From assembly GCA_033762295.1 (NCBI GenBank), contig JANRLW010000108.1, forward strand, positions 1 to 29,045: DNA of 29,045 nt, written 5' to 3'. Position numbers and translations under genes: made by a program. Source of the stretch: Capsulimonadales bacterium. Lineage in GTDB: Bacteria > Armatimonadota > Armatimonadia > Armatimonadales > Armatimonadaceae. Positions 9,554 to 29,045 of this stretch are shown piece by piece. The stretch's first letter is position 1, and each line of letters begins with the position of its first letter. The notes under the pieces are model-generated. The model was not told the DNA's origin and searched no databases. It worked only from the letters and a program-made list of their open reading frames with translations.

Positions 9554-10213
9554 ATGAAAGGCGTGTCAGTAACTGCGGCAGCTTGGCATCCCGTGGCGGT
9601 CTCCGAGCCGGAGACGGGAGAGGAGACGAGACAACGCGCGGAGGAGGAGATCTGGCTCCGACTCAGCCGGGAGGGCGACCTGGAGGCGTTCGAGCGGATC
9701 TACCGTCGATACGAGGAAGCGGTCTACCGGTATGCGTTTCGCCTTCTTGAGAACGCCGATGAGGCGGACGACATGCGGCAGGAGACTTTTGTCCGCGCCT
9801 ATCGTTCGTTGGCTCGCTTCCGGGGCGACTGTCGGTTGCGGACCTACCTTTTTGCGATCTGCGGCAATCTTTGCCGGGACCGGCTGCGCCGTCATCAGCG
9901 TCGCCCCGAATCCGGTTACGGTATCGCGGTCCCTGAGGACGCGACGCCGTTTCGCGCCGCACAGGAACGGGACGGTGATCCCTGGCTCGGCCTGCAACGA
10001 GCGACCGATGCCGGGCGCGTGCGCTCCGTTCTCGGGCGGATGTCGGCATCCGATCGGGAAATCCTTCTGCTCCGTCATGCCGAAAATCTGGAGATCGAGG
10101 AGATCGCCGTCATTCTCGGTTGCACGCGGGTCAGCGCCCCCGTGCGGCTGTTTCGTGCGCGTCAGCGCTTCAAGGACTTATATCTATCGCTTCTGAAAGA
10201 GGAAGGGGAATAG
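9554..10213 (+). CDS. ECF RNA polymerase sigma factor (sigma70 family)
   Basis: Region 2 (GDLEAFERIYRRY...EADDMRQETFVRAY..LARFRG..RLRTYLFAI..NLCRDRLR) and region 4 (DREILLLR...LEIEEIAVILG...VRLFRARQR). Confidence 0.95.
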   Translation: MKGVSVTAAAWHPVAVSEPETGEETRQRAEEEIWLRLSREGDLEAFERIYRRYEEAVYRYAFRLLENADEADDMRQETFVRAYRSLARFRGDCRLRTYLFAICGNLCRDRLRRHQRRPESGYGIAVPEDATPFRAAQERDGDPWLGLQRATDAGRVRSVLGRMSASDREILLLRHAENLEIEEIAVILGCTRVSAPVRLFRARQRFKDLYLSLLKEEGE

Positions 10214-10220
10214 TTCCGCC

Positions 10221-12629
10221 ATGGGAAGCGAATTTCGCTTTGGCCGTGACTGCGAGAGGATCGCGGAGCGGCTCGAGGAGTATGTCACCGGCGCATTGCC
10301 GGAGGGCGAGGAGCGGGGTGGAATCGCCGCGCATCTGGACGAATGCCGGGCTTGCCGGGAGGCGGCGGCCTCCGTCGCCCAGGTCGGCCGGATGGTCGGA
10401 AGCCTGTCCGCCCTGCCGATACCCGCGCGGCCGGGAAACTGGGACGGGGTAAAGGCGCGTCTGAAAACGACCCCGAACGCCGCTTCGACACCCGCGCCCA
10501 AGTTCGGATTCCGTTTCTGGGGCGTCGGCGTACTGGCGGCCCTGTGCGGAACGGCGGCGATCGTCCTGCCGTCGCCGAACGGACCGTTGCCGACATACTC
10601 ACAGGAGGCCGCCCGCGCCGCAGCCGATACCGCACCCGGACCCAAATGGGCGGATAAGGTGCCGTTGAAAGGCGATCGGCAGGACCTGCGGGGGTATTCG
10701 ACGGTCGGAACCGGGGGGAATACCCTGACCGTCGCGCCGGCGATCTTCAACAAGCCCGCTGACGGAACGTTCCCGGTGGTCGTGGAAGTGGGCAACAACG
10801 GTCCGGCGACCCGCGCCCGACTGACCATCCGTCCCTTCCAGTATACATATAATACCCTCCGGCAGTATACATACGCTCTCCCGCTTCGAGCACAGGGGGT
10901 CTCCCGTTTCCTGCTCTACCCGTCCGTCGGTGAAGTCGTATCGGGGGAGGCGAAGGTCCGCCTGCGCTTTCAACTGGAAGCGCCGGGGCGAGAGCAATCG
11001 ATTAACCTGGAGGAACCGGCGGGCGGACCGCAAACGAGGGTTGTTTACCTTGGGAAACGCTTCCCGGCGGTGTCCCTGAAAAGGACGGCGCGCCGGAACG
11101 GCCGGCCATTCTATATCCCGAGTTCGATGGATAGGGCGACTTCGATCGGTTACCTCCTGCCGGAAAACGCTCCGGATCAGGCGATCGGTTACGACAAAAC
11201 GGACGTTCTCGTGCTGTCCTCCGATGCCCGTCAGTTAAACGATATTCAGTGGCGCGCCATCAAAAACTGGGTGATTACGGGCGGAGCCGTGCTCCTTTCC
11301 GACCCGGAACTGCTCAAACGACCGATCGTCGCCGGGATGTCGCCCGTCTCCGTCGAGACATCACGCCTGGGAACCCGCCTCCTTCCCCGACCCGGCACGG
11401 ACGTCCGCGACCGCCTGATGTCGAGCATGCCGAACGTTCCGAATCCGCGTCTCGTACGACGCGATATCGGGGCGGGAACCGTTCTGTACGCCAACTTCGC
11501 ACTCGATACCGAGGAGTTGCGCGACTGGCCGGGTTACGGCGTCCTGTGGGATCGGATTCACTGGTTCCGCGTCGGACTGAAGGGGCATGCCTACTTCGCA
11601 CCGAAAGCCGGTTTCAGGACGGAAGCCGCCTACCACCGCCTGTGGCAAAACGGTGGCGGAGCGGGAGACGATCCGTTCCATACCGCTTTTCCCAGGATGG
11701 AACCGATCGCTCTCTACTTCGTCGCCTATTTCCTGCTGGCGGCGCCGGTTACCTACTTCGTTCTGAAACGACGGGGACGGCTCAACAACGCCTGGGTCAC
11801 CGGGCCTTGCGTGGCCCTGTTGTTCTCCGTCGGGCTGTTCGCGCTGACGGTTCGGCTGTATCTTCTACCGACCGCGCGCCGAACGAAAGGGGTGGTCGCT
11901 CTCGCGTCCGGCGACCCGCAGGGCGTCTTTCTCGGAACGACCGAGTTTTTCTTCCCGCGCGCCGGTCGGTACACCGCGAACGTCTCCGGATGGGAGTCGG
12001 TGGAGACACGGGTGGGTCCCTACGATCCGAGGGAGCGACCTCTGGAAACCGTAGGCCAGGCGGAAACCGACCGCACGGAGATCGCAATGGACGTCACGAA
12101 CTTGTCGTTCCGTCGTCTCTACCACCGGCAGTCGGTCAACCTGAACGGACCGATCGTTTTCCATCTGCAGCCGGTCGGCGGGGACCGGTACCGGGGATTT
12201 ATCGAGAACCGAACCGGACAGGCGCTCACGGATGCCACCATCGTCATGAGCGGCTGGAAAGCCGTCCGGTGGAGACCGAACCGCACCAACCTGTCTGGAG
12301 TAGAGACAGATCGGAAACCTTTCGTCGGCCTTTTCCAACTCGGTACGTTGCCCGTGGGACGGACGCCGGTGGATCGGGTGTTTAGGAATCCTGATGAAAC
12401 GCGGATCACGCATGACTACCGGGAACTGTTCGAAGGTTTCATAAGTGATCGTGATTATGTCCCTATGCCGCAGTTCGCCCGAATGACCCTGGTGGCAAGG
12501 ATTCCGGGGGGGCAGTTCGGGCTGCCACTCGGTAAGGACGTGGATCGGGAAAGGAACGTCACCGTCATGGTCAACACGGAGAGGGTGGGAGATACCACGG
12601 ACGCGGTCCGGCAAGGAGGACACCGATGA
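10221..12629 (+). CDS. zf-HC2 anti-sigma domain fused to a large ABC-associated membrane protein (GATase-like extracytoplasmic domain plus TM hairpin)
   Basis: N-terminal C..(ERLEEYVTGAL)..HLDECRAC, then TM1; PVVVEVGNNG; GYDKTDVLVL...QWRAIKNWVITGGAVL; GAGTVLY.NF.L....DW; TM pair YFLLAAPVTYFVLKRRGR...AWVTGP. Confidence 0.85.
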   Translation: MGSEFRFGRDCERIAERLEEYVTGALPEGEERGGIAAHLDECRACREAAASVAQVGRMVGSLSALPIPARPGNWDGVKARLKTTPNAASTPAPKFGFRFWGVGVLAALCGTAAIVLPSPNGPLPTYSQEAARAAADTAPGPKWADKVPLKGDRQDLRGYSTVGTGGNTLTVAPAIFNKPADGTFPVVVEVGNNGPATRARLTIRPFQYTYNTLRQYTYALPLRAQGVSRFLLYPSVGEVVSGEAKVRLRFQLEAPGREQSINLEEPAGGPQTRVVYLGKRFPAVSLKRTARRNGRPFYIPSSMDRATSIGYLLPENAPDQAIGYDKTDVLVLSSDARQLNDIQWRAIKNWVITGGAVLLSDPELLKRPIVAGMSPVSVETSRLGTRLLPRPGTDVRDRLMSSMPNVPNPRLVRRDIGAGTVLYANFALDTEELRDWPGYGVLWDRIHWFRVGLKGHAYFAPKAGFRTEAAYHRLWQNGGGAGDDPFHTAFPRMEPIALYFVAYFLLAAPVTYFVLKRRGRLNNAWVTGPCVALLFSVGLFALTVRLYLLPTARRTKGVVALASGDPQGVFLGTTEFFFPRAGRYTANVSGWESVETRVGPYDPRERPLETVGQAETDRTEIAMDVTNLSFRRLYHRQSVNLNGPIVFHLQPVGGDRYRGFIENRTGQALTDATIVMSGWKAVRWRPNRTNLSGVETDRKPFVGLFQLGTLPVGRTPVDRVFRNPDETRITHDYRELFEGFISDRDYVPMPQFARMTLVARIPGGQFGLPLGKDVDRERNVTVMVNTERVGDTTDAVRQGGHR

Positions 12630-13540
12630 AAGAAAGTCTGCGAAATCTCTTCATCGAAAATCCGATGCAGATCGAGACGGTGCGCGCCCTGCGGCGATTC
12701 ACCGTGGCGGGCGGAAGCGCGACCGTCCCTCGACATATGAGCCGGATCTTTTTCGGGCTGGTCAGCGGGTTGTACCTCTGGTTGCTCTTCGCCATCCTTG
12801 CCTACCGGGAGGACACGAGCCTCGGAATCCTCTGGTTTGAGTTCGTGATGCTGACCCTGCTGGTTCCCGGATCGCTTTACGCGTCCATCTCCGGAGAGCG
12901 TGAACGCCTGACCTGGGATTCCCTGATCCTAACCCGCCTGTCACCGGCGAAGATTCTGGTCGGGAAAATCTGCTGGCGGCTCGGAATGGCTCTTTGCTTT
13001 CAGCTCCTGTGCGCCGCTCCGCTAGTTCTGACCCATGCGGCAACAAAATTTCAGACCCAGTATACGTGGGATATGCTCCTCCGGGTCCAGTTCGCTTTGA
13101 CCGCCTGGGCGGTCTTTCTGGCGACGTTCACCCTGTGGGTGTCGGCGTCCACCCGTCGTTCGGCGATCAGTCTCTCGATAGTGACGACCTGCCTGTTCGG
13201 TTTCCTGATCCTGATGCCGTTTCTGTTGGCCGTATTCAGCATCAATGTCGAACTGGACTACTATGGGCCAACCGTGATCGAGTGGCTGGGGTCGTTCGTG
13301 TGGCACCTCCACCCCGTATCCCTGATGCACGGCCTGACCAGCGAAGGACAACCCCCCACGGACCGCTGGCGCGACCTGTTCGTTCCGCTGTCGATCGATC
13401 GGGTCACGGGAAAGTATACTCCGGCGGTTGGCATCTACGATCTCGTGCCGTGGATTTATCTCACGCTGGCCGGTCTCTGTATCGTCGCGACCCTGAAAAA
13501 CCTGACACGACTCGGAATGCCGAACGGGAAGGAGCGGTAG
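12626..13540 (+). CDS. ABC-2 type transporter permease
   Basis: About 6 TM; SISGERERLTWDSLILTRLSPAKILVGK motif; ATGA overlap with upstream gene. Confidence 0.88.
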   Translation: MKESLRNLFIENPMQIETVRALRRFTVAGGSATVPRHMSRIFFGLVSGLYLWLLFAILAYREDTSLGILWFEFVMLTLLVPGSLYASISGERERLTWDSLILTRLSPAKILVGKICWRLGMALCFQLLCAAPLVLTHAATKFQTQYTWDMLLRVQFALTAWAVFLATFTLWVSASTRRSAISLSIVTTCLFGFLILMPFLLAVFSINVELDYYGPTVIEWLGSFVWHLHPVSLMHGLTSEGQPPTDRWRDLFVPLSIDRVTGKYTPAVGIYDLVPWIYLTLAGLCIVATLKNLTRLGMPNGKER

Positions 13541-13544
13541 GCGT

Positions 13545-14489
13545 ATGCTGGTCACCGAAAACCTTCGTAAAACGTACGGCAACCTGGTCGCCGTCGATGG
13601 CATCAACCTGAAACTGCATCCGGGCGATATCTTCGGCTTTATCGGTCCGAACGGCGCGGGCAAGACATCGACCATCAAGATGCTGGCAACCCTGATTACG
13701 CCGACATCCGGGCGGGCGACCATCGACGGGATCGATGTCGTCAAACACCCGCGTGAGGTCCGCCCGTTAATCGGCTATATGCCCGACGCCTTCGGCGTTT
13801 ACGACGATATCAAAGTCTGGGAGTACCTGGACTTCTTTTGCGCCGCCTACGATCCGCCGCGCGAATCGCGTGGGGAGATCATCGATCGGGTGCTGGCATT
13901 GACCGATCTGACGGAGAAGCGGGACGCGTACGTGCAGACACTGTCGCGCGGTATGCAGCAACGGCTTTGCCTCGCGAAGTGCCTGGTGCACGATCCGAAA
14001 GTCCTGTTGCTGGATGAACCCGCCTCCGGCCTGGACCCGCGCGCCCGGATCGATATCAAGCGATTGATCGCCCGGCTCGGGGCCCTCGGCAAAACGATCA
14101 TTGTTTCGTCCCATATCCTCCCGGAACTCGCCGACTTCTGCAACAAGATCGGCATCATGGAGCGGGGGCATCTGCTGGTCTCCGGCGATGTCGGAACCAT
14201 CGTCCGACAGGTGCAGCCGACCCGACAGTTGATCGTGTCCACGGAGGAGGACGGGGACGTGCTGGAACGTCTCCTTCACGACCTGCAGGAACGCCCGATG
14301 GTGGAGAAGGTCGAATACGACCCGGATGCTGACCGCACCGTGTGCGTTGCCTTCAAGGGAAGTCTGGCAGACCAGGCGGAACTGCTGCGCGACCTGATTG
14401 CCGCCGGGCATCGGATCTGCTCGTTCGCGGAGTCGGCGGTCGATCTGGAGGATGTTTTCCTGCGTGTGACGACAGGAAAGGTGCAATAA
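13545..14489 (+). CDS. ABC transporter ATP-binding protein (DrrA/CcmA-like)
   Basis: Walker A GPNGAGKT, signature LSRGMQ, Walker B LLLDEP, H-loop SSH, C-terminal LEDVFL. Confidence 0.96.
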   Translation: MLVTENLRKTYGNLVAVDGINLKLHPGDIFGFIGPNGAGKTSTIKMLATLITPTSGRATIDGIDVVKHPREVRPLIGYMPDAFGVYDDIKVWEYLDFFCAAYDPPRESRGEIIDRVLALTDLTEKRDAYVQTLSRGMQQRLCLAKCLVHDPKVLLLDEPASGLDPRARIDIKRLIARLGALGKTIIVSSHILPELADFCNKIGIMERGHLLVSGDVGTIVRQVQPTRQLIVSTEEDGDVLERLLHDLQERPMVEKVEYDPDADRTVCVAFKGSLADQAELLRDLIAAGHRICSFAESAVDLEDVFLRVTTGKVQ

Positions 14490-14493
14490 AACC

Positions 14494-16110
14494 ATGACAC
14501 GCAACCCCCTTGCCCAACCGTGGCGTCGAATCTCGAATCTCGCGCGGTTCGTCGCCAATCCGGTCGTCGTACGCGACCTGCGTTCGCATCTGCGCAGTCC
14601 CCGGTCCTTCTGGCTGATCGGCGGGTACCTTCTCCTGCTCGGATTTCTGGCCGTCGCCGGATATGCTCAGTCCACCGGGCAGACCTGGTATCGAACGGAC
14701 TTGACGTCCGCCAATCCCGTGGACGTCATCGGGGCGCAGGCGAACCTGGAAGGCTTTTATAATTTCATTTTCGGAACGCTCGCCGGGATGATCCTTCTGG
14801 TCGCTCCGGCGTTGACCGCCCACTCGATCGTCGGTGAACGACAGCGGCAATCGTTCGATCTGCTCGTTACGACCCCCCTGACCGCCGGGCAGATACTGAT
14901 CGGCAAACTGATTTCGTCGATCGCCTTTATGGGATTGCTGCTGATTCTGTCGCTGCCGGCGACCGCACTCTGCCTCCTTCTGGGCGGCGCGAACGTTGCC
15001 GACGTGCTGCGGATCTATTTCGTGCTGGCGGTCGATGCGGTGGTGCTGTCCGCCATCGGACTGTATTTCTCCTGCGCGGTTCGAGTTCCGCTGCTCGCGA
15101 CCGTCTGGACCTATATCTCCGTTCTGGGCTTCACCTTTCTTACCTTTGTCCTGGGCATGTCAATGGACGGGTCGCTGTCGCCCCTGCCCGGGGCACTGCT
15201 CTGGCTCAGTCCGCTGGGGGCGATTAGTCCCGTCTCCGGAAACCATGACGGACTTTACCACACGACGAGGCTGCTGGCTTTCGCGGCTTTCGCCGTCGTT
15301 CTGGTTCGGCAGTTGATCGCCGCCGGAACCTATCGCCTGGGACGGTTCGGAACGGAAAGCGCGGTCTTCCTGCGGAAACAGGCGTTGCTGATCGCAGGCG
15401 TGATGACCCTCGTCGTTACGACCGGTATCTCATCCGAAGAATGGATCGTGAACAGGTTGACACTGTTCCTATTTTTGACCATCGCGCCGTTCCTCCCCGG
15501 GTTATTCGTTCCCGCGACCGGTGAAGCGTTGCCTCCTCCGGTCGGGAACGGCACGACGGACGCGGAGGACAGGGAGGAAGATCGGACGCCGTTTCGATTT
15601 CGCAACCTCTTTCGCCCGGTTCACAGTGGCGCGTTTCCCTGGTATCTGGCGCTGGTCGGGGTCGTTTTCGCCGGGTGGATTGTTGGCACGATCGGCTACG
15701 AAAGGGTCCGCCTGCCAATGCTGGCGGTAGGAACGGCATTCTGCGGATACCTGCTCGGAATGGGAACCCTCGCCTGGGGGTTGTCGCGTCTGGCGGGAAC
15801 GCTGGTATCCGACCTGTCGTCCGCCCGTGCCACCGCGTTCGGTCTCCTGGTGGCGGTTTGCGGCCTGCCGGTCCTGCTACTGACCTTCGCGAGTTCGGAT
15901 TGGACGGCGAATCCGCTCGCGCCGCTCTGGTTGCTCAGTCCCTGGCTGCGGAATAGCCACTATGGCCATGCGGAGGGCCTGATTCGGTCGGGAATCATCG
16001 CCGCTGCCGTCGGATGGGTGGTTTTCGGGATCGACCTGGCTCTGAGCCGTCGGGCGTCGGACCGAACGACCGGTATCCGTCCGACCACGGAACCGCAGAC
16101 CGCCCGGTAG
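14494..16110 (+). CDS. ABC-2 type transporter permease with extended multi-TM C-terminus
   Basis: NPVVVRDLRS.LR; SIVGERQRQSFDLLVTTPLTAGQILIGKL; about 12 hydrophobic segments. Confidence 0.88.
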   Translation: MTRNPLAQPWRRISNLARFVANPVVVRDLRSHLRSPRSFWLIGGYLLLLGFLAVAGYAQSTGQTWYRTDLTSANPVDVIGAQANLEGFYNFIFGTLAGMILLVAPALTAHSIVGERQRQSFDLLVTTPLTAGQILIGKLISSIAFMGLLLILSLPATALCLLLGGANVADVLRIYFVLAVDAVVLSAIGLYFSCAVRVPLLATVWTYISVLGFTFLTFVLGMSMDGSLSPLPGALLWLSPLGAISPVSGNHDGLYHTTRLLAFAAFAVVLVRQLIAAGTYRLGRFGTESAVFLRKQALLIAGVMTLVVTTGISSEEWIVNRLTLFLFLTIAPFLPGLFVPATGEALPPPVGNGTTDAEDREEDRTPFRFRNLFRPVHSGAFPWYLALVGVVFAGWIVGTIGYERVRLPMLAVGTAFCGYLLGMGTLAWGLSRLAGTLVSDLSSARATAFGLLVAVCGLPVLLLTFASSDWTANPLAPLWLLSPWLRNSHYGHAEGLIRSGIIAAAVGWVVFGIDLALSRRASDRTTGIRPTTEPQTAR

Positions 16111-19601: not shown

Positions 19602-19630
19602 ATTATAAAGGAACGGAGCATTCCTGTCAA
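19602..19630 (-). promoter_or_regulatory. Perfect-consensus sigma70 promoter of hrcA
   Basis: Minus strand TTGACA GGAATGCTCCGTTCCTT TATAAT (17-nt spacer). Confidence 0.88.
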
Positions 19631-19705: not shown

Positions 19706-19894
19706 CTATTCCGGCTTGGCCGCCGGAACCGTCGCCGGTTCGCTTTTGACCGGCGCCCCGCCCGGTTCCGCCGTCTTCAGGCCCGCCGCGGCAGCGCCGG
19801 GCGGCGGAGACGGATTGTTCTCCGGAGGGGGGTCGCCGCAGCCGGCCAGGGCCAGGCAGACCAGGAGGACGAGACCGAAAAGGAGTCTGGACAT
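19706..19894 (-). CDS. Small Pro/Ala-rich lipoprotein
   Basis: 62 aa; signal peptide II with lipobox LAG-C; AGGA RBS; 12 nt after the pilin-like gene. Confidence 0.8.
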   Translation of the reverse strand: MSRLLFGLVLLVCLALAGCGDPPPENNPSPPPGAAAAGLKTAEPGGAPVKSEPATVPAAKPE

Positions 19895-19906
19895 GAGTGC
19901 GTTCCT

Positions 19907-20767
19907 TTACGGGTTGATGACCGGGCCGTAGAAGTAGTACCAGGTGGCGCACCATCCGGTGGTCGCGGTATTCGCGACCCAGAGTGAGGTCGGAAGCCCG
20001 TTGGCATCCAGCGCCGCCCACGGCGAGCTCGAACCCGGATTGACCACGTACTTCACGTGGCCGTCGGTGTAGGTGTAGTTGGTGCCGCGATTATGCACCC
20101 ACCAGGACCGGTTGTAGTTGAAGTTGAAGCCGTAGCGTCCGGTCGCCGTGGAGCAGTCACCCGAGGCCGAACCGGGGTTGAACTGCGTCTGCGCCGCGCC
20201 GGTGTCGCTCAGCAGCAGCGGGAAGACGTTGCCGAAGCGCGGCATGGTGCCCTTGCCGAGACCCTCGGAGATCATGATGACGCTGGCCGGAGCCTGGGTG
20301 CCGGCGAGAGCCCATGCGCCGAGGTAGCCGTTGAAGGTATACGAGAACTTGATCCCGTTCGTCTGGGCGGAGGTGACGCCGAAAACGTCGCTGCGCTCAT
20401 CCACGGCGGTCGGGCAGGTGAAGACCTGCCAGTTCTTGATATACGGAGAGACGGCGTTGGTCCAGAACGCTTTGCGTCGGTTGTAGCCCAATTCCGAGGA
20501 GGCGGTCGCGTCCCACGGGGTGGTGAAGGAGGCGACGACGTTATCCGGGTGAGCGATCGGGTACTTCTCATCGTAATCCTGAACATACATCAGGATGCCG
20601 GTACCCAGCTGCTTCATATTGGACAGACACGTGGCCTGACGGGCCTTTTCACGGGCCTGAGCGAAGACCGGAAAGAGGATGGCGGCGAGAATGGCGATGA
20701 TGGCGATAACGACCAGGAGCTCGATCAGAGTGAAGCCCGCCAGAGAGCGGTTGCGATTGCGAGACAT
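19907..20767 (-). CDS. DUF1559 prepilin-type N-terminal cleavage/methylation protein with H-X9-DG C-terminal motif
   Basis: [76 protein letters not shown]. Confidence 0.95.
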
Positions 20768-20900
20768 TACAAAGCACTCCTAACTACGATTGATTCGGTG
20801 CCGATAATAATTCAGCAATAGTGCGGTGTGTAATTTACCTGATCTCATCCGCGACAAAGGGATTTAACAGTGTCTTAATGTTTCTTGCCCTGTTGGGGAT

Positions 20901-20930
20901 AGTTTTAACCTGATTTCCTCCGCTTGTCAA
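20901..20930 (-). promoter_or_regulatory. Candidate sigma70 promoter of the pilin-like gene
   Basis: Minus strand TTGACA-N17-TAAAACT in an AT-rich intergenic region. Confidence 0.55.
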
Positions 20931-20936
20931 GCCGTT

Positions 20937-20952
20937 TGCGAAAACGATTGCA
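20937..20952. promoter_or_regulatory. LacI/GalR-type operator-like site
   Basis: TGCGAAAACGATTGCA with central CG, 6 nt upstream of the -35. Confidence 0.5.
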
Positions 20953-20960
20953 CGATAATT

Positions 20961-21025
20961 GAAAAAACAGAGATCGTCCGCGTGCCTGACGAGAGGAAAA
21001 CTCCGGGCAGGGGGACGATCTCTGT
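20961..21025 (-). terminator. Long-stem Rho-independent terminator of the oxidoreductase gene
   Basis: Perfect 13-bp inverted repeat ACAGAGATCGTCC (20967-20979) / GGACGATCTCTGT (21013-21025) with an inner stem; T-tract on minus strand. Confidence 0.8.
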
Positions 21026-21069
21026 GAAAAACCTGAAAAAACAGGTGAAGCTACCGGGTAAAACGGTCG

Positions 21070-22161
21070 TCAGTCGATGGCGACTTCCTTACCGGCGTCG
21101 GCGGCGGCGTAGATGCCGTCGAGCATTTTCTGCACCATGACGCCATGTTCCGCCGGAGCCTCGTTCGGACGTCCGTCGCGAACGACTTCGACGAAATGCC
21201 GCATCTTATACTCCCACATATCCCATTTCGGGATGAACGCCGGCGTGGCATTGACCATGTAGGTGTTATAGTCGGTAAAGGTTTCGGACGTATTCCAGAT
21301 AACGCCGCCCTTTTCACCGAAAATCTGGATGTTAAAAACATCTTCCTTAATGTGGGCGACAAAGGAAGACTCCAGGGTCAGCATCGCCCCGGTTTCGAAG
21401 CGGATCATGCCGACCGCCAGATCCTCGACCGTATAGGTTTCGTGGTCCCAGTTCGGCCAGGTCGACTTGACATCCGATTTGGTATTGCCGAGGTAGGTGA
21501 AGGTGTTTCCGGTAGCGGTGACCGGGCGCGGGGTGCCGATCAGCGAGTGCGCCGTTTCCAGGATATGGACGCCGATATCGATCATCGGACCGCCGCCCTG
21601 CAGCTCCTTGCGGCCGAAAACGCCCCAGTTCGGGATGCCACGGCGGCGAAGGGCCTGGGCGCGCACGTAGAGCACTTTGCCGATCGCGCCGGATTCGATC
21701 AGATCGCGAACATACTTGGAGCGGGGTTCATACCGGTGCTGAAAACCGATAATGAACTCGACCCCGTTCGCCTTCGCCGCGGCGGCCATCTCCTGCGCCT
21801 CTTTGGCGTTCATCGCCATCGGTTTCTCGCAGAGAACATGCTTGCCGGCGTTCATCGCGGCGATCGCGGCGGGGGCATGGACGCCGTTCGGAGTCGCCAC
21901 CGAGATCGCATCCACCGCGTCACCGACCTCCTGAAGCATCTCGTTGTAATCGGTGTAGAGCAGTTCGACCCCGTGCGCCGCCCGCATATGGTCGAGGGCG
22001 GTCTGACGGATATCCGCGCCGCAGACGATGGAAACGCCGGGAAATTTCTTGAAATAGCCGATGTGGGTTTGCGCAATCCCGCCGCAGCCGATGATTCCAA
22101 CCCTCAGCGCTTTGACCTCGGCTTCGTCGCCCTCGGGGACGACACTTACTGCTGTATCCAT
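21070..22161 (-). CDS. Gfo/Idh/MocA family NAD(P)-dependent oxidoreductase
   Basis: VGIIGCGGIA Rossmann motif, VATPN..H, GKHVLCEKPMA, GGGPMIDIGVH; ATG 22161 with GAAGGA RBS preferred over 22329. Confidence 0.95.
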   Translation of the reverse strand: MDTAVSVVPEGDEAEVKALRVGIIGCGGIAQTHIGYFKKFPGVSIVCGADIRQTALDHMRAAHGVELLYTDYNEMLQEVGDAVDAISVATPNGVHAPAAIAAMNAGKHVLCEKPMAMNAKEAQEMAAAAKANGVEFIIGFQHRYEPRSKYVRDLIESGAIGKVLYVRAQALRRRGIPNWGVFGRKELQGGGPMIDIGVHILETAHSLIGTPRPVTATGNTFTYLGNTKSDVKSTWPNWDHETYTVEDLAVGMIRFETGAMLTLESSFVAHIKEDVFNIQIFGEKGGVIWNTSETFTDYNTYMVNATPAFIPKWDMWEYKMRHFVEVVRDGRPNEAPAEHGVMVQKMLDGIYAAADAGKEVAID

Positions 22162-22331
22162 GAAAACCTGTCCTTCAACATAATGATGGGACGGTACGGC
22201 GATTCCCGCAGACCGGCCCTGTTCCCCAACGTTATACACCGGAACGGCCAAGTCCTGCCGTTCAACGGGATTTCCGGAGATTTCCGGGCGTACGCAGGGT
22301 AAAATCGGAAAAAACGGGACGGTGGGCAACC

Positions 22332-22655
22332 ATGTGGAACGTGCGAATGAACCTTCTGGAGGCGGAAGCGGTCGAAGAGATGAACGAGGCGACCGGCGTC
22401 ATCTCCGAGGCGGGCGGCGGTGGGACGGAACGCTACCTCTGGCTCCGGTCGATTTTCGCGGCCGGCCGGTCCGTCGGACGGCAGGAAACGATGGCGCTGG
22501 CCCGGGTCCCGGCCGTCGGCGAGTATGTCTGCCTTCCGCTGGAGGAGGATGTCTGGTACCGGGTCGAGGCGGTGCTGCATACTCCCGGACAGGCGACCCA
22601 CGTCGCCGAAATCTGGGCGTTCGAGGGCGCAGCCGACGACGTTGCCCCGGAATGA
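22332..22655 (+). CDS. Hypothetical small acidic protein
   Basis: 107 aa; protein-like C-terminal half (RVPAVGEYVCL...WYRVEAVLHTP); start uncertain. Confidence 0.6.
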   Translation: MWNVRMNLLEAEAVEEMNEATGVISEAGGGGTERYLWLRSIFAAGRSVGRQETMALARVPAVGEYVCLPLEEDVWYRVEAVLHTPGQATHVAEIWAFEGAADDVAPE

Positions 22656-22752: not shown

Positions 22753-22780
22753 TTGACACGGGACCAAAAGGAGATATAAT
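22753..22780 (+). promoter_or_regulatory. Consensus sigma70 promoter of the LacI-pilin-GH144 operon
   Basis: TTGACA-N16-TATAAT. Confidence 0.85.
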
Positions 22781-22796
22781 TCAGCCAACGGCGGGG

Positions 22797-22807
22797 TTAA
22801 CCGTTAA
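22797..22807. promoter_or_regulatory. Palindromic operator candidate for the adjacent LacI repressor
   Basis: TTAAC-C-GTTAA perfect palindrome just downstream of the predicted TSS. Confidence 0.6.
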
Positions 22808-22852
22808 AGCATAAACGGTGTCCGGGAGCCGTTTCGGAGAAAAGCTTCAAGG

Positions 22853-23917
22853 ATGAGCAGGCGAGGCGTCACATTACAGGACATAGCGGTCCGCACCGGG
22901 GTTTCCAAAGTCACGGTGTCCTATATTCTCAACGGACGAGAAACCAAGGTGCGTATCAGCGATTCGACCCGCACACGCGTCCTGGCCGCCGCCCGTGAGA
23001 TGGGCTATCATCCCAACGCGCTCGCTCGCGCCCTCGTTCGCCGCTGTACCGACACGGTCACCCTGGTCATGCAGTTCCCCGGGGTTTTCTCCGGCGGGAC
23101 GGGCTTCATTTTCGAACTTCTGCACGGGGTTACCGAGGCGGCCAACCGCACCGGCTACGACCTGATGCTGCACACCAAGGCGCTGCCCGGCGTCACCGAG
23201 GAGGTGGGCGCGCTGACCGACGGACGCGCGGACGGTGTCCTCCTCTTGCGCGACCTGGGTGACCCGCTGATCGCCGAACTGGCGGCGCGACACTTCCCCG
23301 CCGTCTGCCTGTTCTCCCGGACCGACGAACCCGATGCCTGCTTCGTGGACTGTGATAACGTCTCGGGGGGGCGACTGGTTGCGGAGCACCTGCTGGAACT
23401 CGGTCATCGCCGCCTCTGCTTCGTCGGCGGGTCCTCGTCGTCGTCCGCCGTCCAGGACCGCTGGCAGGGACTTTTCGAAGTGGCGACGCCGGCGGGAGCG
23501 GAAGTGACGCGGTGTACCGTATACCATGCCAACGGGGATTTCACACCCTTGCGGGAGATTATGCAACGAAAGGATGCGCCGACCGCCATCTTCGTCTGGA
23601 GTGACGATGTCGCGGTCAGCACGATGAACCGACTTCGGGAATGGGGGTTCCGGGTCCCGGAGGAGGTGTCGGTGGTCGGATTCGACGGTCTGGAGTCGCT
23701 GTGCGAGCGCAGCGTTCCGCGATTGACCAGTGTTCGCCAGCCGATTTATGAGATTGCGGAGCAGGCCATGCGCCTGCTGGTTGCCCGTATTCGACAGGAA
23801 GAGGGCATCGAAACGCAAATTCTCCTGTCACCGGAACTGATACGGCGCGATTCCTGTGCGCCGGTAATATCGTCAATATCGTCTCAACACTCTACCTCCT
23901 ATGGAAGGAACCAATGA
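22853..23917 (+). CDS. LacI family transcriptional regulator
   Basis: [23 protein letters not shown]...[56 protein letters not shown]. Confidence 0.96.
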
Positions 23918-24774
23918 TGTCCCGTTCCCAAGTTCGAGCTTTTACGCTGATTGAACTGCTCGTCGTCATCGCCATTATCGCCATTCTGGCAGCCATCCTG
24001 TTCCCGGTCTTCGCCCAGGCCCGTGAAAAGGCTCGTCAGATTTCCTGTCTGTCCAACATGAAGCAGATCGGTACCGCGCTCATGATGTACAACCAGGACT
24101 ATGACGAACTCTTCCCGCTTCGCTACGGCGGCAATTGTGACGGCACCAACGCCGCACTGCCGAACGACTGCGTCCTGACCATGGACAACACCGGTCGATA
24201 CGTTCAGCGCAACTGGAAGCATATGCTCTTCCCCTATATCAAGAACCGCGATGTCTTCAAGTGTCCGAGCAACCCGACCGCGCAGAGGCCGGATACCTGG
24301 GGCAATGCGAACGGGATCCAGGAGGGCGAATTCGCCGGCGGTTACGCGATGTATCTGCCGGATAACTGGATCGCCAGCCGTGTCGGACGCGGTATGGCCT
24401 ACCCGCAGCCGATCGCCGGCGTCGAGGAACCGGCCAACGCGCTGATCATCGTCGAGCACAGCTACCGCTGGCCCGACACCGGAACCTACCTTGGCTATGT
24501 CGAACCGGCTCCGAGCAACGATCCGGCGATCACTCCGGGACCGTCGACCTGGAACTCCGGCCACAACAAGAAGAAGAGCAACATCGTCTTCATGGACGGC
24601 CATGCCAAGTACACGAGCCTCCGAGCGACCTATGGTCCGCAGTTCGACGATCCGAACTCCACCCAGCTCAGCATGTGGCGCTACTCCCGCCGCGAAGTCG
24701 ATGCTCATCCGGACGGCATCTCCTGGCTGTACACCCTGTACACCGACCTGAAGAACTACCCGGGCGAGAACTAA
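23914..24774 (+). CDS. DUF1559 prepilin-type N-terminal cleavage/methylation protein (H-X10-DG C-terminal motif)
   Basis: [76 protein letters not shown] overlap with lacI. Confidence 0.95.
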
Positions 24775-24782
24775 TCCCGTCG

Positions 24783-24813
24783 ATCCCTCCTGCGGTCCTC
24801 CCGCAGGAGGGAT
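24783..24813 (+). other. Intra-operon 13-bp perfect hairpin (mRNA stabiliser/attenuator) after the pilin-like gene
   Basis: ATCCCTCCTGCGG-TCCTC-CCGCAGGAGGGAT; the 3' arm contains AGGAGG. Confidence 0.7.
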
Positions 24814-24825
24814 TTCTCCGATTCC

Positions 24826-26076
24826 ATGCAAACCAGTATCACCGTACCGGAACCGAAGGCGATCACCCCGGACGCGCTTTTTGATAACGTCGCGCACCGC
24901 GCCGTCGCGTTCTTCTACAACGAATCCCATCCCGACACCGGGCTGACCAAGGACCGGGCGAAAAACCCCGCCCATCTCAAGGATGAGTACACGGTCGCCT
25001 CCATCGCCGCCACCGGCTACGCCCTTTCCGCTCTCTGCATCGGCGCGGAACGAAAGTGGCTATCGCGAAGCGACGCCGAAGCGCGCGCGCGTCGTACTCT
25101 GCGTTTCATCTATGACAGCCTCCCGGTCGTGCACGGGTTCCATTACCATTTCGTCGATTGGCGGGATGGAAAACGCGTCTGGAACTGCGAACTCTCCTCG
25201 ATCGATTCGACCCTTCTGGTCAAGGGAGCGCTGGTCGCCGGACGGTATTTCGAAGGCGAGTGCGCGCGTCTGGCGGATTCGATCTACGCCCGGATGGACT
25301 GGCGCTGGATGCAGAACCGGAAGCCGGGCGATCCCGTCGATACTTTGCTGTCCATGGGATGGAAACCCGAATCCGGGTTTCTCGACGGGCGCTGGGCGCG
25401 TTACGACGAGGCATCCTATCTTTACCTGATGGCGATGGGCGCGCCGCGACATTCCCTCCCGCCGTCGGTCTGGGATAAGTGGGAGGTCGGAGAAACCACC
25501 CTCGAAGGGTTCAAAATCCTCGGGCGGCCCGGCCCCCTTTTCTTCGTCCAGATGACCCCCGCCTACTTCGACCTGCGCGGCAAAAAGGACCGACTCGGAC
25601 GCGACTGGTGGAAAAACTTCGAGAACACCCATCGAGCCAATCATCGTTACTGCGCCCGGAACGCCGGTAGGTTCAAGACGTACAGCGATGTGATCTGGGG
25701 AATCACTGCCTGCGACCAGCCGCCGAACAAGCCGGGGGAGGGGAACGGATACGGCGCGGACGAACCGGTCGACGGACGGAACCGGGGAACCGTCGCCCCC
25801 ACCGCCGCCCTGGCCGGTATTCTCTTCGTTCCGGAGATCTCCCGGCGAACCGTGGTCGCCCTGTATTCACAGTACCGGGAGAAAATATGGGGGCGTTACG
25901 GATTCGCCAACGCCTTCAACGTCGATAAGGACTGGTACGATACCGATGTTCTCGGCATCGACCTGGGCATGATGCTGCTCGCCATCGAAAATTCGCGATC
26001 CGGCCTGATCCGGAAACTGATGCACAGCCACCCGGCGGCTCGGAAGGGTTTGAGCGCCGCCGGATTTCGCGTTTGA
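24826..26076 (+). CDS. Glycoamylase-like (PF10091) glycoside hydrolase, GH144-type endo-beta-1,2-glucanase; no signal peptide
   Basis: TGLTKDRA, SIAATGYAL, HGFHYHF, ELSSIDSTLL..G, MDWRW, YDE..YLY.MA.G, GPLF..Q, WGITAC, GTVAPTAA, WGRYGFANAFN, LGIDLG..LLAIENSRSG. Confidence 0.88.
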   Translation: MQTSITVPEPKAITPDALFDNVAHRAVAFFYNESHPDTGLTKDRAKNPAHLKDEYTVASIAATGYALSALCIGAERKWLSRSDAEARARRTLRFIYDSLPVVHGFHYHFVDWRDGKRVWNCELSSIDSTLLVKGALVAGRYFEGECARLADSIYARMDWRWMQNRKPGDPVDTLLSMGWKPESGFLDGRWARYDEASYLYLMAMGAPRHSLPPSVWDKWEVGETTLEGFKILGRPGPLFFVQMTPAYFDLRGKKDRLGRDWWKNFENTHRANHRYCARNAGRFKTYSDVIWGITACDQPPNKPGEGNGYGADEPVDGRNRGTVAPTAALAGILFVPEISRRTVVALYSQYREKIWGRYGFANAFNVDKDWYDTDVLGIDLGMMLLAIENSRSGLIRKLMHSHPAARKGLSAAGFRV

Positions 26077-26100
26077 CGGAACTGACGGAACTGACGGAGA
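26074..26100 (+). repeat. 9-bp tandem repeat x3 (TGACGGAAC, TGACGGAAC, TGACGGAGA)
   Basis: Read directly; begins at the GH stop codon and ends in the RBS of the next gene. Confidence 0.85.
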
Positions 26101-26106
26101 ACCTGG

Positions 26107-26313
26107 ATGAAAATGACCCAACGACGTTATCTTATTGCCGCCATCGGCGGCCTGCTGCTGCTGGCTGGTTGTTCCACCCCGGAGTCGAAACCGTCGCCGG
26201 TGCCGTCCTCCGACCCGAACGGCAACCCGACGCGCTCCACCGATCCCCGGGTAAAGGATAACCCGAATATTCCGCCCGAAATCCGCCGCCAACTCGGCGG
26301 GGGCCAGCGGTAA
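26107..26313 (+). CDS. Small Pro-rich lipoprotein
   Basis: 68 aa; MKMTQRRYLIAAIGGLLLLAG-C lipobox; GGAGA RBS. Confidence 0.82.
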   Translation: MKMTQRRYLIAAIGGLLLLAGCSTPESKPSPVPSSDPNGNPTRSTDPRVKDNPNIPPEIRRQLGGGQR

Positions 26314-26340
26314 CCTTCCGCCACACTGCCCACGGTAACT

Positions 26341-26372
26341 CGCTGGCACTCGCAAAAAAGCGGGTGCCAGCG
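26341..26372 (+). terminator. 13-bp hairpin after the lipoprotein gene (terminator or stabiliser)
   Basis: CGCTGGCACTCGC-AAAAAA-GCGGGTGCCAGCG, weak T-run afterwards. Confidence 0.6.
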
Positions 26373-26406
26373 TTCGGCGTTTCCGGTATCCTGACTCCCG
26401 ACGCCC

Positions 26407-27486
26407 ATGGCCTTACGTCCCGATGACATATTCCGCCGGCTGGCGACCCTCATGGCCGTTTCGGTCCTGGCGGTCGTGATCGGTTGCCGCTCCGCCGGGA
26501 CCGTCGACCGACCGACGCCGGTCTCCTCCGAAGCCGCCCGGGAGACGGACGAACGGACGCAGGCGGAGGTTCGGCAACGGCTGGCGCAGGGCGATTTCGC
26601 CGGAGCCGTGGCGCCGTTACGCGAACTCGCGAAACGAAATCCGAACGATACGGAGACGCTGACCATGCTCGGGACGTGCGTTCTCCGGTCGCCGGACCCG
26701 CGCCGGTTCGCCGACCAGGCGCGAAAGGAACTGACCGCCGATCCGAACGATGTCGTAGCCCTGACCGTCGCCGCCGCCGCGTTCACCGGGCCGGAACTGC
26801 AGAAAGAGCGGCTGGACGTCATGAAGCGTCTGGCCGAACGGCGACCGGACGATCCGCTCGTTCGTCTCGATCTCGCCGTGGAGTACGTCGCCGCCCATCA
26901 GTACGATCTGGCCCGTCCCCTGCTCGATCGGATGATCGAGCAAAAGCCGGACGAACCGATGGGATACCTCCTGCGCGGCAGAATCACCCTGGAGGAGGCA
27001 TCTACCGACGAGGCGCTCCGTCGCGCCGAAACGGATCTGAAAACGGCGATCCGCCTGCGACCGACGATGGCGACCGCGCATCTGAGCCTGGGGAGAATCG
27101 CCCTGCGCCGCAACCGCCCGGAAGCGGCGATCAAAGCCTTCGAAACGGCCTACCGGCATCAGCCCAACAGCGGCGAAATCCTGTACGAACGGGCGCGTAC
27201 CTATCGCCTGCTGGGGAACGCCGAAAAGGCGAACTCCGCCGAGAAGGCGCTGCGACGTTACCGCGAACTGGAGATGCGTAGCGCGACGCTGGTCACCCGC
27301 TGCGGCGCGTTTCCGGACGACTTCGAACTGCACCTGGAGACCGTCCGCGCCCTGGCGGAAAAAGGGGACTATCAGCGCGCCGCGCCGTTTCTCCGACGGG
27401 CGATGCAGCTTCGCCCGGACGATGACCGCACCCGTCGGCTGATGGAGGATCTGCGTCGACGGGCCGCGCAGGGGGCCGGTTCGTGA
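26407..27486 (+). CDS. Tetratricopeptide repeat lipoprotein
   Basis: Hydrophobic signal with VIG-C lipobox; multiple TPR-like units (AHLSLGRIALRRNRPEAAIKAFETAYRHQPN and others). Confidence 0.88.
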   Translation: MALRPDDIFRRLATLMAVSVLAVVIGCRSAGTVDRPTPVSSEAARETDERTQAEVRQRLAQGDFAGAVAPLRELAKRNPNDTETLTMLGTCVLRSPDPRRFADQARKELTADPNDVVALTVAAAAFTGPELQKERLDVMKRLAERRPDDPLVRLDLAVEYVAAHQYDLARPLLDRMIEQKPDEPMGYLLRGRITLEEASTDEALRRAETDLKTAIRLRPTMATAHLSLGRIALRRNRPEAAIKAFETAYRHQPNSGEILYERARTYRLLGNAEKANSAEKALRRYRELEMRSATLVTRCGAFPDDFELHLETVRALAEKGDYQRAAPFLRRAMQLRPDDDRTRRLMEDLRRRAAQGAGS

Positions 27487-29045
27487 GAACTTTCCCGATG
27501 GTCGGGATCGCTGCCGTTCTCCTCCTCGCCGGATGCTCGACCGCTCCGCCGAACGGGACGGGGACCGGCTCCGTCGCCGTCGAACCCACGACCCCGACCG
27601 CCGCGACCGCTCCGACCGTTACCATGACGGAACGCGCCCTGTTCGTTGACCGGGCCGCCGACGCCGGAATTCGCTTTACTCACGATGCCGGGGCGACCGG
27701 TAAGTTTTTCTACATCGAGAACACTCCGCCCGGCTGCGCCTTCCTCGATTTTGACAGCGATGGCTGGCTCGACCTCTTTCTGGTGCAGTCCGGACCCTCC
27801 GAACCGCCGGAGACCGTCACCGCCCGTCCGCCCTGCGCTCTCTACCGGAACAACCGCGACGGAACGTTCACGAACGTGACGGACGGTTCCGGCGTCGAGG
27901 CGGACATCGGATACGGGCAGGGCGTGGCGGTCGGCGACTACGACAACGATGGCTTCCCGGACCTGCTGGTAACGTCATACGACCGGCTGCATCTGTTTCG
28001 CAACCGGGGAGGGACCGGAAAATTCCTCGACGTGACGCGAACGATGGGTATGGACACCCTTCGGGGGTACTTTACCAGCGCCGCGTTCGGCGATTATGAC
28101 AACGACGGAAAGCTCGACCTGTATGTCTGCCGCTACGGCCCCTGGGACTGGAAGTCGAACGTTCCCTGCCGGGACAACCTGGGGCCGGACTACTGTCCGC
28201 CGATCGTCTACGAGCCGGACGAGCACCTGTTGCTCCGTAACGAAGGAACCCGTTTTCGCGACGTGAGCCGGTCCGCCGGAATTCATGCGGCGAAAGGCCG
28301 GGGTCTCGGGGTGGTTTTTCTCGATTTCGACCGGGACGGGAAACAGGATATTTTCGTCGCGAACGATCAGACACCGAATATGCTCTGGCGAAACCGGGGT
28401 GACGGGACCTTTTCGGAGGTGGCCGTGCCTGCGGGCTGCGCCTACGACGCTCAGGGGCAGGTCATGGCCGGGATGGGCGTTGCGGTAGGGGATTATGACC
28501 GCTCCGGCAACGATAGCCTGTATGTCGGCAACTTTTCCGACAAGCCGAACATGCTCTTCCGCAATATCGGGAACGGACTGTTCCGGGACGAGAGTTATGC
28601 GTCAGGTCTCGCGCTGCCGCATATGCCGTTCCTCACCTTCGGCACCGAGTTCTTCGATTACGACCGGGACGGCTGGTTCGATCTGCTGACCGTCAACGGA
28701 CATGTCAAGGTGACGGTCGACCGTCAATCCGCCATGACCACCTACCGGGAGCGAAAACAGCTTTTCCGCAACGAAGGGAACGGTCGCTTTACGGAGGTCG
28801 CCGAACCGGGGCAACTCGGGTCGCTGGGCAATGCGACCATCGGTCGGGGGCTGGCGATCGGCGACTATGACAACGACGGACGTCCGGACGCGCTGATCGC
28901 CAACCAGAACGGCCCGACCGAACTGATGCGTAACGAAACGAAGAATGAAAACCGCTGGGTTTCGTTCCTTCCCGTCGGCGTAAAGTCCAACCGCGAGGGG
29001 CGGCACGCACAATTCGTCCTCAGGGCGGGCGGTGAAACCCGGACG
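27483..29045 (+). CDS. CRTAC1-family FG-GAP + ASPIC/UnbV lipoprotein (truncated by window end; absent from the ORF track)
   Basis: Translated manually from GTG 27483 (GTGA overlap): MRTFPMVGIAAVLLLAG-C...FVDRAADAGIRFTH...GCAFLDFDSDGWLDLF...GDYDNDG repeats...GRGLAIGDYDNDGRPD...NRWVSFLPVGVKSNREG. Confidence 0.92.
   Translation, partial: MRTFPMVGIAAVLLLAGCSTAPPNGTGTGSVAVEPTTPTAATAPTVTMTERALFVDRAADAGIRFTHDAGATGKFFYIENTPPGCAFLDFDSDGWLDLFLVQSGPSEPPETVTARPPCALYRNNRDGTFTNVTDGSGVEADIGYGQGVAVGDYDNDGFPDLLVTSYDRLHLFRNRGGTGKFLDVTRTMGMDTLRGYFTSAAFGDYDNDGKLDLYVCRYGPWDWKSNVPCRDNLGPDYCPPIVYEPDEHLLLRNEGTRFRDVSRSAGIHAAKGRGLGVVFLDFDRDGKQDIFVANDQTPNMLWRNRGDGTFSEVAVPAGCAYDAQGQVMAGMGVAVGDYDRSGNDSLYVGNFSDKPNMLFRNIGNGLFRDESYASGLALPHMPFLTFGTEFFDYDRDGWFDLLTVNGHVKVTVDRQSAMTTYRERKQLFRNEGNGRFTEVAEPGQLGSLGNATIGRGLAIGDYDNDGRPDALIANQNGPTELMRNETKNENRWVSFLPVGVKSNREGRHAQFVLRAGGETRT

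Follow-up and report, generated by a model that had tools for sequence, protein, structure and literature searches.

The DNA analysed here, referred to as the window, is the whole of contig C108 (29,045 bp) of the assembly of a Capsulimonadales bacterium, a soil-type member of the Armatimonadota (G000; 5.16 Mb, 132 contigs, 94.5% complete). Its 3' end, from position 22753 to 29045, carries an operon in which a LacI-type repressor gene is followed by genes for a pilin-like DUF1559 protein, a GH144-type beta-1,2-glucanase homologue and three lipoproteins. Every element described for this operon in the original prediction, which had been made from the letters of the window, was recovered in place; since the contig stops within the last gene, no UnbV_ASPIC domain is visible for it here. 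The features are as follows.

22753..22780, + strand: sigma-70 promoter, with TTGACA at 22753-22758, a 16-nt spacer and TATAAT at 22775-22780 (12/12 consensus matches).
22797..22807, strand not applicable: predicted LacI operator, palindrome TTAACCGTTAA, read from the sequence, with an inverted AAACGGT half-site at 22813-22819.
22853..23917, + strand: LacI-family repressor, 354 amino acids (aa); PF00356 (helix-turn-helix, HTH) at 3e-15 and PF13377 (Peripla_BP_3) at 3.5e-35.
23914..24774, + strand: prepilin-type DUF1559 protein, 286 aa; PF07963 (N_methyl) and PF07596; 4-nt ATGA overlap with the lacI stop.
24782..24814, + strand: intercistronic GC-rich hairpin, 14-bp stem followed by UUUCU; -29 kcal/mol, z -5.9.
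24826..26076, + strand: GH144-type beta-1,2-glucanase homologue, 416 aa; PF10091 at 1e-61.
26107..26313, + strand: small lipoprotein, 68 aa, with a Pro/Ser-rich tail; lipobox LLLAGC, no Pfam match.
26407..27486, + strand: TPR lipoprotein, 359 aa; TPR_16, TPR_19 and TPR_14; lipobox VIGC.
27483..29045, + strand: CRTAC1-like FG-GAP beta-propeller lipoprotein; FG-GAP_3 x6; lipobox LLLAGC; 4-nt overlap with the TPR stop.

Taken together with its relatives, the locus is almost certainly a conserved LacI-type-controlled operon related to beta-1,2-glucan, whose constant partner is a private pilin-like protein. In the genomes compared, which are not independent samples (the closest relatives of the window GH144 gene are all from Armatimonadota metagenome-assembled genomes), the orthologue of the window DUF1559 protein shares an operon with GH144 in 9/9 loci, the window counted. 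The complete form is found in the closest relative, L032, which lies on a contig of 117 kb from an uncultured Armatimonadetes bacterium (L069, which is the same DNA, was left out of the counts). There the genes for LacI (64% identical), DUF1559 (57%), GH144 (84% by tblastn, 85% by BLASTP), the TPR lipoprotein (42%) and a CRTAC1-like FG-GAP protein (65%; 579 aa, carrying UnbV_ASPIC, PF07593) stand in the same order as in the window, the 68-aa lipoprotein having no counterpart, and convergent PolX-like and GlnD-like genes follow, so that the operon ends there. A reduced form, LacI, DUF1559 and GH144 followed by unrelated or convergent genes, was observed at L033, L049 (from G036, a complete genome of a different family), L050 and L051; L034 begins alike and is cut at a contig end, and L043 consists of DUF1559 and GH144. 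At L052, in another family, the same five genes are reordered as LacI, DUF1559, TPR, FG-GAP/UnbV_ASPIC and GH144.

Neither the window nor its relatives supplied a transporter. Pfam searches detected no SusC/TonB, ATP-binding cassette (ABC), phosphotransferase system or major facilitator superfamily gene among the six operon genes, and no transporter was found within or behind the complete L032 operon, so that the claim of a transporter-free operon holds. The same is true of the short forms L033, L043, L050 and L051, and none of the nine GH144 loci with a DUF1559 orthologue has an importer gene alongside. At L041, whose GH144 is 53% identical, the enzyme gene belongs instead to a classical ABC locus that also contains SBP_bac_1, MalK and a fused permease.

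The linked DUF1559 protein is well delimited. Its homologues, with identities of 48-62% and E values from 1e-104 to 1e-60, group into 73 clusters; the hits that come next reach 42% (E 1e-42). Among 150 other Armatimonadota genomes, for each of which 16 candidates were scored so that misses are possible, five yielded a hit at E <=1e-55, always one per genome. A metagenome scan for orthologues gave 79 loci, one of them an orthologue (the same DNA as L032); one of the search patterns had hit the common N-terminus and drawn in paralogues. A FastTree phylogeny built from 131 DUF1559 sequences unites the window protein with seven GH144-linked orthologues (99% local support), and none of the paralogues from the same genome falls within this clade. 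The proposal that clades of the DUF1559 variable domain track the neighbouring glycoside hydrolase (GH) family is therefore borne out for the GH144-linked clade. The pilin itself evolves fast: terminal branches in this tree have a median length of 1.12 substitutions per site.

Two other GH144 loci differ between lacI and the enzyme gene. At L040 (2641-2913) the DUF1559 gene looks degraded, with a 90-aa C-terminal fragment remaining, and at L046 (2896-3617) a 720-nt gap carries no called gene; both point to occasional loss of the pilin. On the 3' side of the G036 operon, a stretch of about 5 kb (L049 11800-17000) holds no open reading frame (ORF) of at least 150 aa and may be an rRNA operon.

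The GH144 gene is the sole PF10091 gene of the genome. Its product has 8xul (4e-58) and 5gzh (4e-42) as relatives in the PDB, and residues E239, F286 and Y367 of XcSGL, as described for the SGL clan in the available portion of PMC12102758, correspond to its E195, to the F of GPLF and to the Y of GNGYG. Sequence and clan residues E/F/Y thus place the protein in GH144, and its activity is predicted on this basis. No GH94 phosphorylase match was found in the 94.5%-complete genome. A signal peptide is missing from the enzymes of the window, L032, L033 and L049, the N-terminus of the window protein having no hydrophobic stretch; it is clear in those of L043, L050, L051, L052, L040 and L046 and ambiguous in that of L034. 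Within the wider SGL clan, PMC12102758 also reports enzymes that have no signal peptide, PgSGL1 and PgSGL2. Since the pilin partner is kept with cytoplasmic and exported GH144 alike, these data argue against a role limited to exporting GH144; where the enzyme has no signal peptide, an inner-membrane importer must be encoded elsewhere.

ABC permeases are represented in the genome by 34 BPD_transp_1 matches in 30 genes, nearly all of them distant from LacI genes. A candidate unconventional importer is the polytopic DUF6785/DUF6784 membrane protein, of which there are 13 paralogues of about 650 aa with 6-13 hydrophobic segments (for example L010:3982-5949), located on C16, C92, C69 and ten other contigs and having no PDB relative by sequence.

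Exact matches to TTGACA-N16-18-TATAAT number two in the window, where 100 shuffles gave an expectation of 0.00, and genome-wide 26 copies were counted against 0 for a reversed control. The window LacI combines an HTH domain with a sugar-binding core, all its NCBIfam matches lying below the equivalog cut-offs, and the palindrome TTAACCGTTAA, its predicted operator, starts 17 nt past the -10 box and is the sole exact copy in the genome. Related palindromes stand just after the -10 box of the orthologous lacI promoters in 3/4 inspected relatives: TTAACCGATTAA, present twice and inverted, in L032, TGAACCGGTTCA in L040 and TGAAACGGTTCA in L046, none being evident in L033. A genome scan with four operator variants, allowing at most one mismatch, gave no convincing second site before a transporter; near-matches lie upstream of two other LacI-type regulators (C51_23 and C92_10) and at a few unrelated spots. 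Several of the 26 perfect promoters precede other LacI or DUF1559 genes (C67:15031, C75:24528, C117:38496, C85:14334), and the second perfect promoter of the window, TTGACA-N17-TATAAT at 19602-19630 on the minus strand, lies upstream of hrcA.

The second regulatory feature is the hairpin behind the pilin gene, which none of 200 shuffles equalled (0/200). Strong hairpins were found in the DUF1559-GH144 spacer of all four loci in which this spacer measures at least 50 nt (window, L032, L049 and L051); their 10-15-bp stems are followed by U-rich tracts, and their sequences differ among the four loci. Such an element is likely an attenuator or an mRNA-stabilising structure after the pilin gene. 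Terminator-like hairpins are known after major pilin genes, and by analogy the position suggests that the pilin may be made in excess.

The pairing of a LacI-type regulator with a DUF1559 gene is not particular to this operon. Genes were called genome-wide with our own dicodon model (4157 genes), a crude procedure in which starts are those of the longest ORF, and families were counted with our own scripts; local profile searches gave 141 DUF1559-like genes, about 3% of all genes (141/4157), and 31 LacI-type regulators, and with Pfam profiles run on the raw genome the corresponding numbers of matches were 128 and 28. The next same-strand gene is a DUF1559 gene for 12/31 regulators, where about 1.05 would be expected (binomial p 2e-10). 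Two further regulators have a 78-93-aa ORF between LacI and DUF1559, and three have a divergent DUF1559 neighbour. In all, a DUF1559 gene lies within two genes of 19/31 regulators, an ABC permease within six genes of 2/31 and a DUF6785/DUF6784 membrane protein within six genes of 5/31. In the complete genome G036, DUF1559 directly follows six of the eight LacI genes, one has a divergent DUF1559 neighbour and one has none. The original prediction had placed the pilin-like protein in the slot of the substrate-binding component. As a statement of position this stands, statistically, in the present genome; as a statement on the protein it finds no counterpart in the structural model described below, where a binding-protein fold was not detected.

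The N-terminus of the window DUF1559 protein is a class III signal peptide with F+1, E+5 and Ala at -1, and both prepilin profiles matched above their cut-offs (PF07963, 32.3 bits, cut-off 21.2; TIGR02532, 28.3, cut-off 16.3). Membership of DUF1559 is given by PF07596 (42.2 bits, cut-off 23.3) and by a C-terminal H-x10-DG motif (H-x9-DG in the family), TIGR04294 being absent from the results of the NCBIfam scan. F10 (F+1), E14 (E+5), D228 and H230 are invariant across 64 sequences, and Cys 45, Cys 117, Y-x-Q-D-Y-D-E and D-G-H-x-K are also conserved. The AlphaFold2 model (pLDDT 92, pTM 0.86) consists of a helix at 12-62 followed by a globular alpha/beta head. In a structure search independent of Foldseek, 18 of the 20 best rows were pilins or pseudopilins at Z 3-4.9, among them PilA4 (Z 4.9), EpsG (4.6), PulG (4.3) and the DNA-binding minor pilin ComP (4.1). 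Foldseek gave no match at E <=0.001 for the full model, the best weak rows being type IV pilins. For the head alone (residues 60-286, pLDDT 88), none of 48,161 chains reached Z >=2 and Foldseek again returned nothing at E <=0.001. A periplasmic-binding-protein fold was not among the matches of the full or head model, a missing match which by itself excludes nothing. According to the model, the protein has a pilin/pseudopilin core, and the Pfam name SBP_bac_10 appears to gain no support from these searches.

This name is one reason to consider that the protein may be a non-polymerising, anchored binding or sensor protein, whose helix would anchor a periplasmic head, and the head would pass oligosaccharide on to an importer of ABC or DUF6785 type from another locus. 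The name sets the family among the solute-binding proteins and is repeated in the part of PMC2754498 available; the slot right behind the regulator is the usual one for binding-protein genes; Tuwongella proteins with both domains fractionate with membranes, as stated in the accessible section of PMC8567305, and the Sulfolobus bindosome, as outlined in PMC3047682, provides a precedent. The neighbourhood counts also suit such a protein, ABC genes lying near only two of the LacI regulators and DUF6785 genes near five. Against it stand the failure to detect a binding-protein fold in the model, the invariance of F+1 and E+5, two residues on which filament assembly depends, the post-pilin hairpin, which suggests the stoichiometry of a structural protein, and the lack of a co-located importer in all nine GH144 loci. 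We regard an anchored binder as quite improbable.

Processing and assembly functions for a pilin are encoded in the same genome. Nine T2SSE ATPase matches (four long, five short), three secretins and a weak match to an A24 prepilin peptidase were found, and contig C121 brings together an ATPase gene, small pilin genes and a 404-aa gene in the position of a platform protein, for which it is a candidate. Prepilin-motif proteins number 132, of which 124 are DUF1559-like.

The same inventory could serve export. The pilin might adapt a shared type II secretion-like machine to bring the lipoproteins of its operon (small, TPR and CRTAC1-like) to the surface for display. The Klebsiella secreton, which is regulated by maltose and exports the lipoprotein pullulanase, offers a parallel. 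All three signal-peptide proteins of the operon are lipoproteins, the pseudopilins EpsG and PulG are among the best structure matches, the best NCBIfam match of the N-terminus, below threshold, is GspG, the genome has secretins and GspE-type ATPases, and small and TPR lipoproteins recur beside DUF1559 genes. The reduced operons L033, L049, L050 and L051 speak against such an adaptor, for they keep the pilin without any lipoprotein cargo; in the window, L032, L033 and L049 the enzyme has no signal peptide, so that the pilin is kept where the operon has nothing to export. Moreover, we know of no secreton with more than 100 cargo-specific pseudopilins. An export adaptor is on this evidence unlikely.

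The lipoproteins that follow GH144 belong to a wider recurrent association. The window copy of the CRTAC1-like protein, taken to be a calcium propeller, shows 521 of about 580 aa and runs off the contig end; its profile matches 9etn at 3e-27. The G-C of the lipobox is at least 90% conserved among 58 homologues, and these proteins evolve slowly: the 120 best listed homologues are 51-72% identical to the L032 protein, and a paralogue on C38 of the present genome is 65% identical to it. The TPR partner evolves at an intermediate rate. The clustered proteome was used for an enrichment analysis of families within +-3 genes of DUF1559 (background 0.156, identities confirmed by Pfam), which gave the following counts.

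LacI: near DUF1559 in 19/31, p 1e-8.
CRTAC1-like FG-GAP: near DUF1559 in 8/13, p 2e-4.
PQQ_2 propeller: near DUF1559 in 6/8, p 3e-4.
Metallophos: near DUF1559 in 4/4, p 6e-4.
TPR: near DUF1559 in 5/7, p 1.5e-3.

Nine of the 13 CRTAC1 genes lie 1-3 genes 3' of a DUF1559 gene, with 0-2 genes, frequently an ORF of 70-110 aa, between DUF1559 and the TPR gene and with CRTAC1 last; contig ends cut many of the cassettes. The TPR gene intervenes in eight of these nine cassettes, no TPR gene standing between in the one on C9, and a LacI gene is near four of them. Small ORFs beside DUF1559 genes mostly encode a lipobox or a single transmembrane segment and a low-complexity tail. The co-occurrence of DUF1559 with small lipoproteins and CRTAC1, which had been proposed, is thus real by neighbourhood counts in this genome. 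A complex prediction for the L032 CRTAC1-like protein (19-579) and DUF1559 head (30-274) gave 0.00 in two runs made with no controls and weighs neither way.

Such a recurrence raises the question of a generic envelope cassette, devoted for example to calcium-dependent or redox chemistry or to envelope maintenance, into one copy of which GH144 and LacI would have been inserted as passengers. The cassette is present at 9/13 CRTAC1 genes, most copies have neither LacI nor a glycoside hydrolase, and the CRTAC1 paralogues are highly conserved, as such a function would have it. The linkage described above is at odds with this explanation: the DUF1559 orthologue stays with GH144 in every one of the nine loci, six of which are without TPR/CRTAC1, and the five-gene set is kept at L052 in another family with its order changed, which speaks for selection on the set rather than chance insertion. 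The passenger explanation therefore has, in our judgement, a low probability.

Other families adjoin DUF1559 in this genome. At L058 (G000 C93:1-10000) a DUF1559 gene leads an array of 5-6 PQQ_2/BamB-like propeller genes, beside a galactose-oxidase-like E-set/fn3 protein. All four members of the Metallophos cluster adjoin a DUF1559 gene, and a triad of GntR-HTH+Peripla_BP_3 regulator, DUF1559 and Metallophos occurs twice, at L059 (G000 C62:19000-22500) and at C6:75159-78344.

For the operon of the window we favour, tentatively and at somewhat less than an even chance, an interpretation in which the pilin, as a subunit of a shared type IV filament machine, confers specificity for one substrate and works with the TPR and CRTAC1-like lipoproteins to capture the glucan, or thread it, at the envelope. 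The operon would serve the response to beta-1,2-glucan (sophoro-oligosaccharides). A sugar inducer would free LacI, and of the roughly 140 pilin-like DUF1559 proteins the cell would then make this one, which a prepilin peptidase would cleave. The shared type IV filament machinery, with its four PilB/GspE-type ATPases and three secretins, would insert the pilin into the inner membrane or build it into a short fibre, the hairpin allowing it to exceed the products of the downstream genes. The variable head and the TPR and CRTAC1-like lipoproteins would capture or thread the glucan at the envelope, much as a competence pilus equipped with a DNA-binding minor pilin brings DNA through a secretin. 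Oligosaccharides would then enter the cytoplasm via an importer encoded elsewhere and be cut by the cytoplasmic GH144. Within an uptake route, the module would account at most for the half that lies in the envelope or at the outer membrane. In a broader version, more than 100 separately regulated, substrate-specific DUF1559 pilins would serve one type IV filament/secretin machine that reels polymers or other nutrients across the outer membrane in a competence-like manner; the present operon would be its cartridge for beta-1,2-glucan, and in the periplasm the TPR and CRTAC1-like proteins would form the receiving station. We put forward this generalisation as doubtful.

Several observations weigh against the filament interpretation. 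All pilin structure matches have Z <5, a range which the tool deems unreliable alone, and structure searches detected no lectin, carbohydrate-binding module or binding-protein similarity in the head domain. Residue -1 of the prepilin site is Ala instead of Gly, and the A24 prepilin peptidase of the genome is a single, weak and partial match. Classical ABC importers are ample in the genome. A LacI gene stands directly upstream of about 12/141 DUF1559 genes here and in 9/49 metagenome loci with enough upstream DNA; with such a pairing in only about 10-20% of cases, the family should not be solely sugar-related. The 12 DUF1559 paralogues linked to TPR-CRTAC1 are dispersed over the tree (12 changes, with 11.6 after shuffling), so that pilin and propeller are without visible co-diversification. 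The CRTAC1 paralogues share 50-72% identity, which suggests a constant rather than a substrate-specific job, and lipoprotein partners fit awkwardly with a fibre-tip complex.

Elsewhere in the window, a second envelope-type set is encoded on the minus strand at 19706-22329, divergent from the lacI promoter region: a Gfo/Idh/MocA oxidoreductase gene (21070-22329) is separated by 300 nt from a second DUF1559 gene (19907-20767), which an ORF of 62 aa with a lipobox (19706-19894) follows. Between the oxidoreductase gene and the lacI promoter, a 107-aa ORF (22332-22655, + strand) has a good coding score and no Pfam match, and it is not found upstream of the L032 lacI gene. At 9554-16110 (+ strand) the gene of an extracytoplasmic function sigma factor is followed by that of an 802-aa protein with no Pfam match and by an ABC-2 transporter (permease, ATPase, permease).

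In the literature searched, operons combining a regulator, a pilin and a hydrolase were not found described, nor was a functional study of bacterial CRTAC1/FG-GAP/UnbV proteins found. DUF1559, which forms the largest paralogue family of several planctomycetes, is presented as an expanded family of unknown function in the available parts of PMC10632474, PMC8567305 and PMC2754498; PMC5352709 mentions it in passing only. The new elements here are the pairing statistics in two genomes, the complete end of the operon, the 9/9 linkage of the orthologue including the rearranged five-gene version, the cytoplasmic enzyme, the positionally conserved hairpin and the structural result.

The locus offers a clean test case, as a single-copy orthologue always occurs with one enzyme of known specificity, under a predicted repressor and operator and with defined candidate partners. 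Should the head bind sophoro-oligosaccharides, the role of DUF1559 would become testable paralogue by paralogue, and so would the observation of polysaccharide on planctomycete fibres. If the broader version with its many exchangeable pilins were true, it would add a third general solution for glycan capture in diderms to SusC/D and binding-protein-dependent ABC systems, and would account for the largest paralogous family still lacking an explanation in Planctomycetota, Verrucomicrobiota, Lentisphaerota and Armatimonadota. Binding of sophoro-oligosaccharides by the head would also matter for interpreting carbon turnover in metagenomes, because these DUF1559-rich phyla are, to our knowledge, without recognisable polysaccharide utilization loci (PULs).

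Compared with known systems, the DUF1559 protein resembles type IV pilins and the major pseudopilins of type II secretion (Thermus PilA4, 6xxd; EpsG, 4lw9; PulG, 5wda) in its class III signal peptide, F+1 and E+5, in a long N-terminal helix predicted to pack on a beta-sheet and in the presence of assembly genes in the genome. It also shares with GspG a conserved acidic/His motif near the C-terminus, which we take to be the region where GspG binds calcium. It differs from PilA4, EpsG and PulG (125-130 residues) by about twice the size, with some 100 extra residues in the head, and, unlike the pilins of pilus and secreton operons, the 141 DUF1559 paralogues are scattered outside such operons, the present one standing behind a sugar repressor. 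Another functional analogy may be the competence pili, where a polymer-specific pilin such as Neisseria ComP (5hz7; Z 4.1 here) sits on a retractile type IV filament which draws the polymer in through a secretin. In the present case a glycan would be the substrate and the operon has no ComEA/ComEC counterpart.

Systems for sugar uptake provide the other terms of comparison. In the Sulfolobus bindosome (Bas system), as presented in the part of PMC3047682 consulted, proteins with a pilin-type signal peptide also serve sugar uptake, but these are true ABC solute-binding proteins working with ABC transporters, whereas no binding-protein fold was detected here and the operon has no ABC genes. Classical beta-1,2-glucan ABC loci, such as L041 or that of the Chloroflexus binding protein (PMC13731917, available in part), likewise contain a GH144-type enzyme; L041 has its SBP_bac_1, fused permease and MalK, where the window and eight related loci have DUF1559 and no importer. 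In planctomycetes, gold-labelled dextran decorates pili-like fibres and the polysaccharide ends in the periplasm, according to the available text of PMC5394234; that phylum, different from the present one, shares the DUF1559 expansion, and the same text neither names the fibre protein nor makes a link to DUF1559 or LacI. As for the description of the operon as PUL-like, it is apt as an analogy and does not extend to SusC and SusD, which are absent from the six operon genes and from the complete L032 operon and its flanks. With a LacI-type regulator, a cytoplasmic enzyme and neither a SusC TonB-dependent transporter nor SusD, the operon departs from the PULs of Bacteroidota, and it resembles them in that a single locus, specific for one substrate, unites a regulator and a glycoside hydrolase with envelope lipoproteins.

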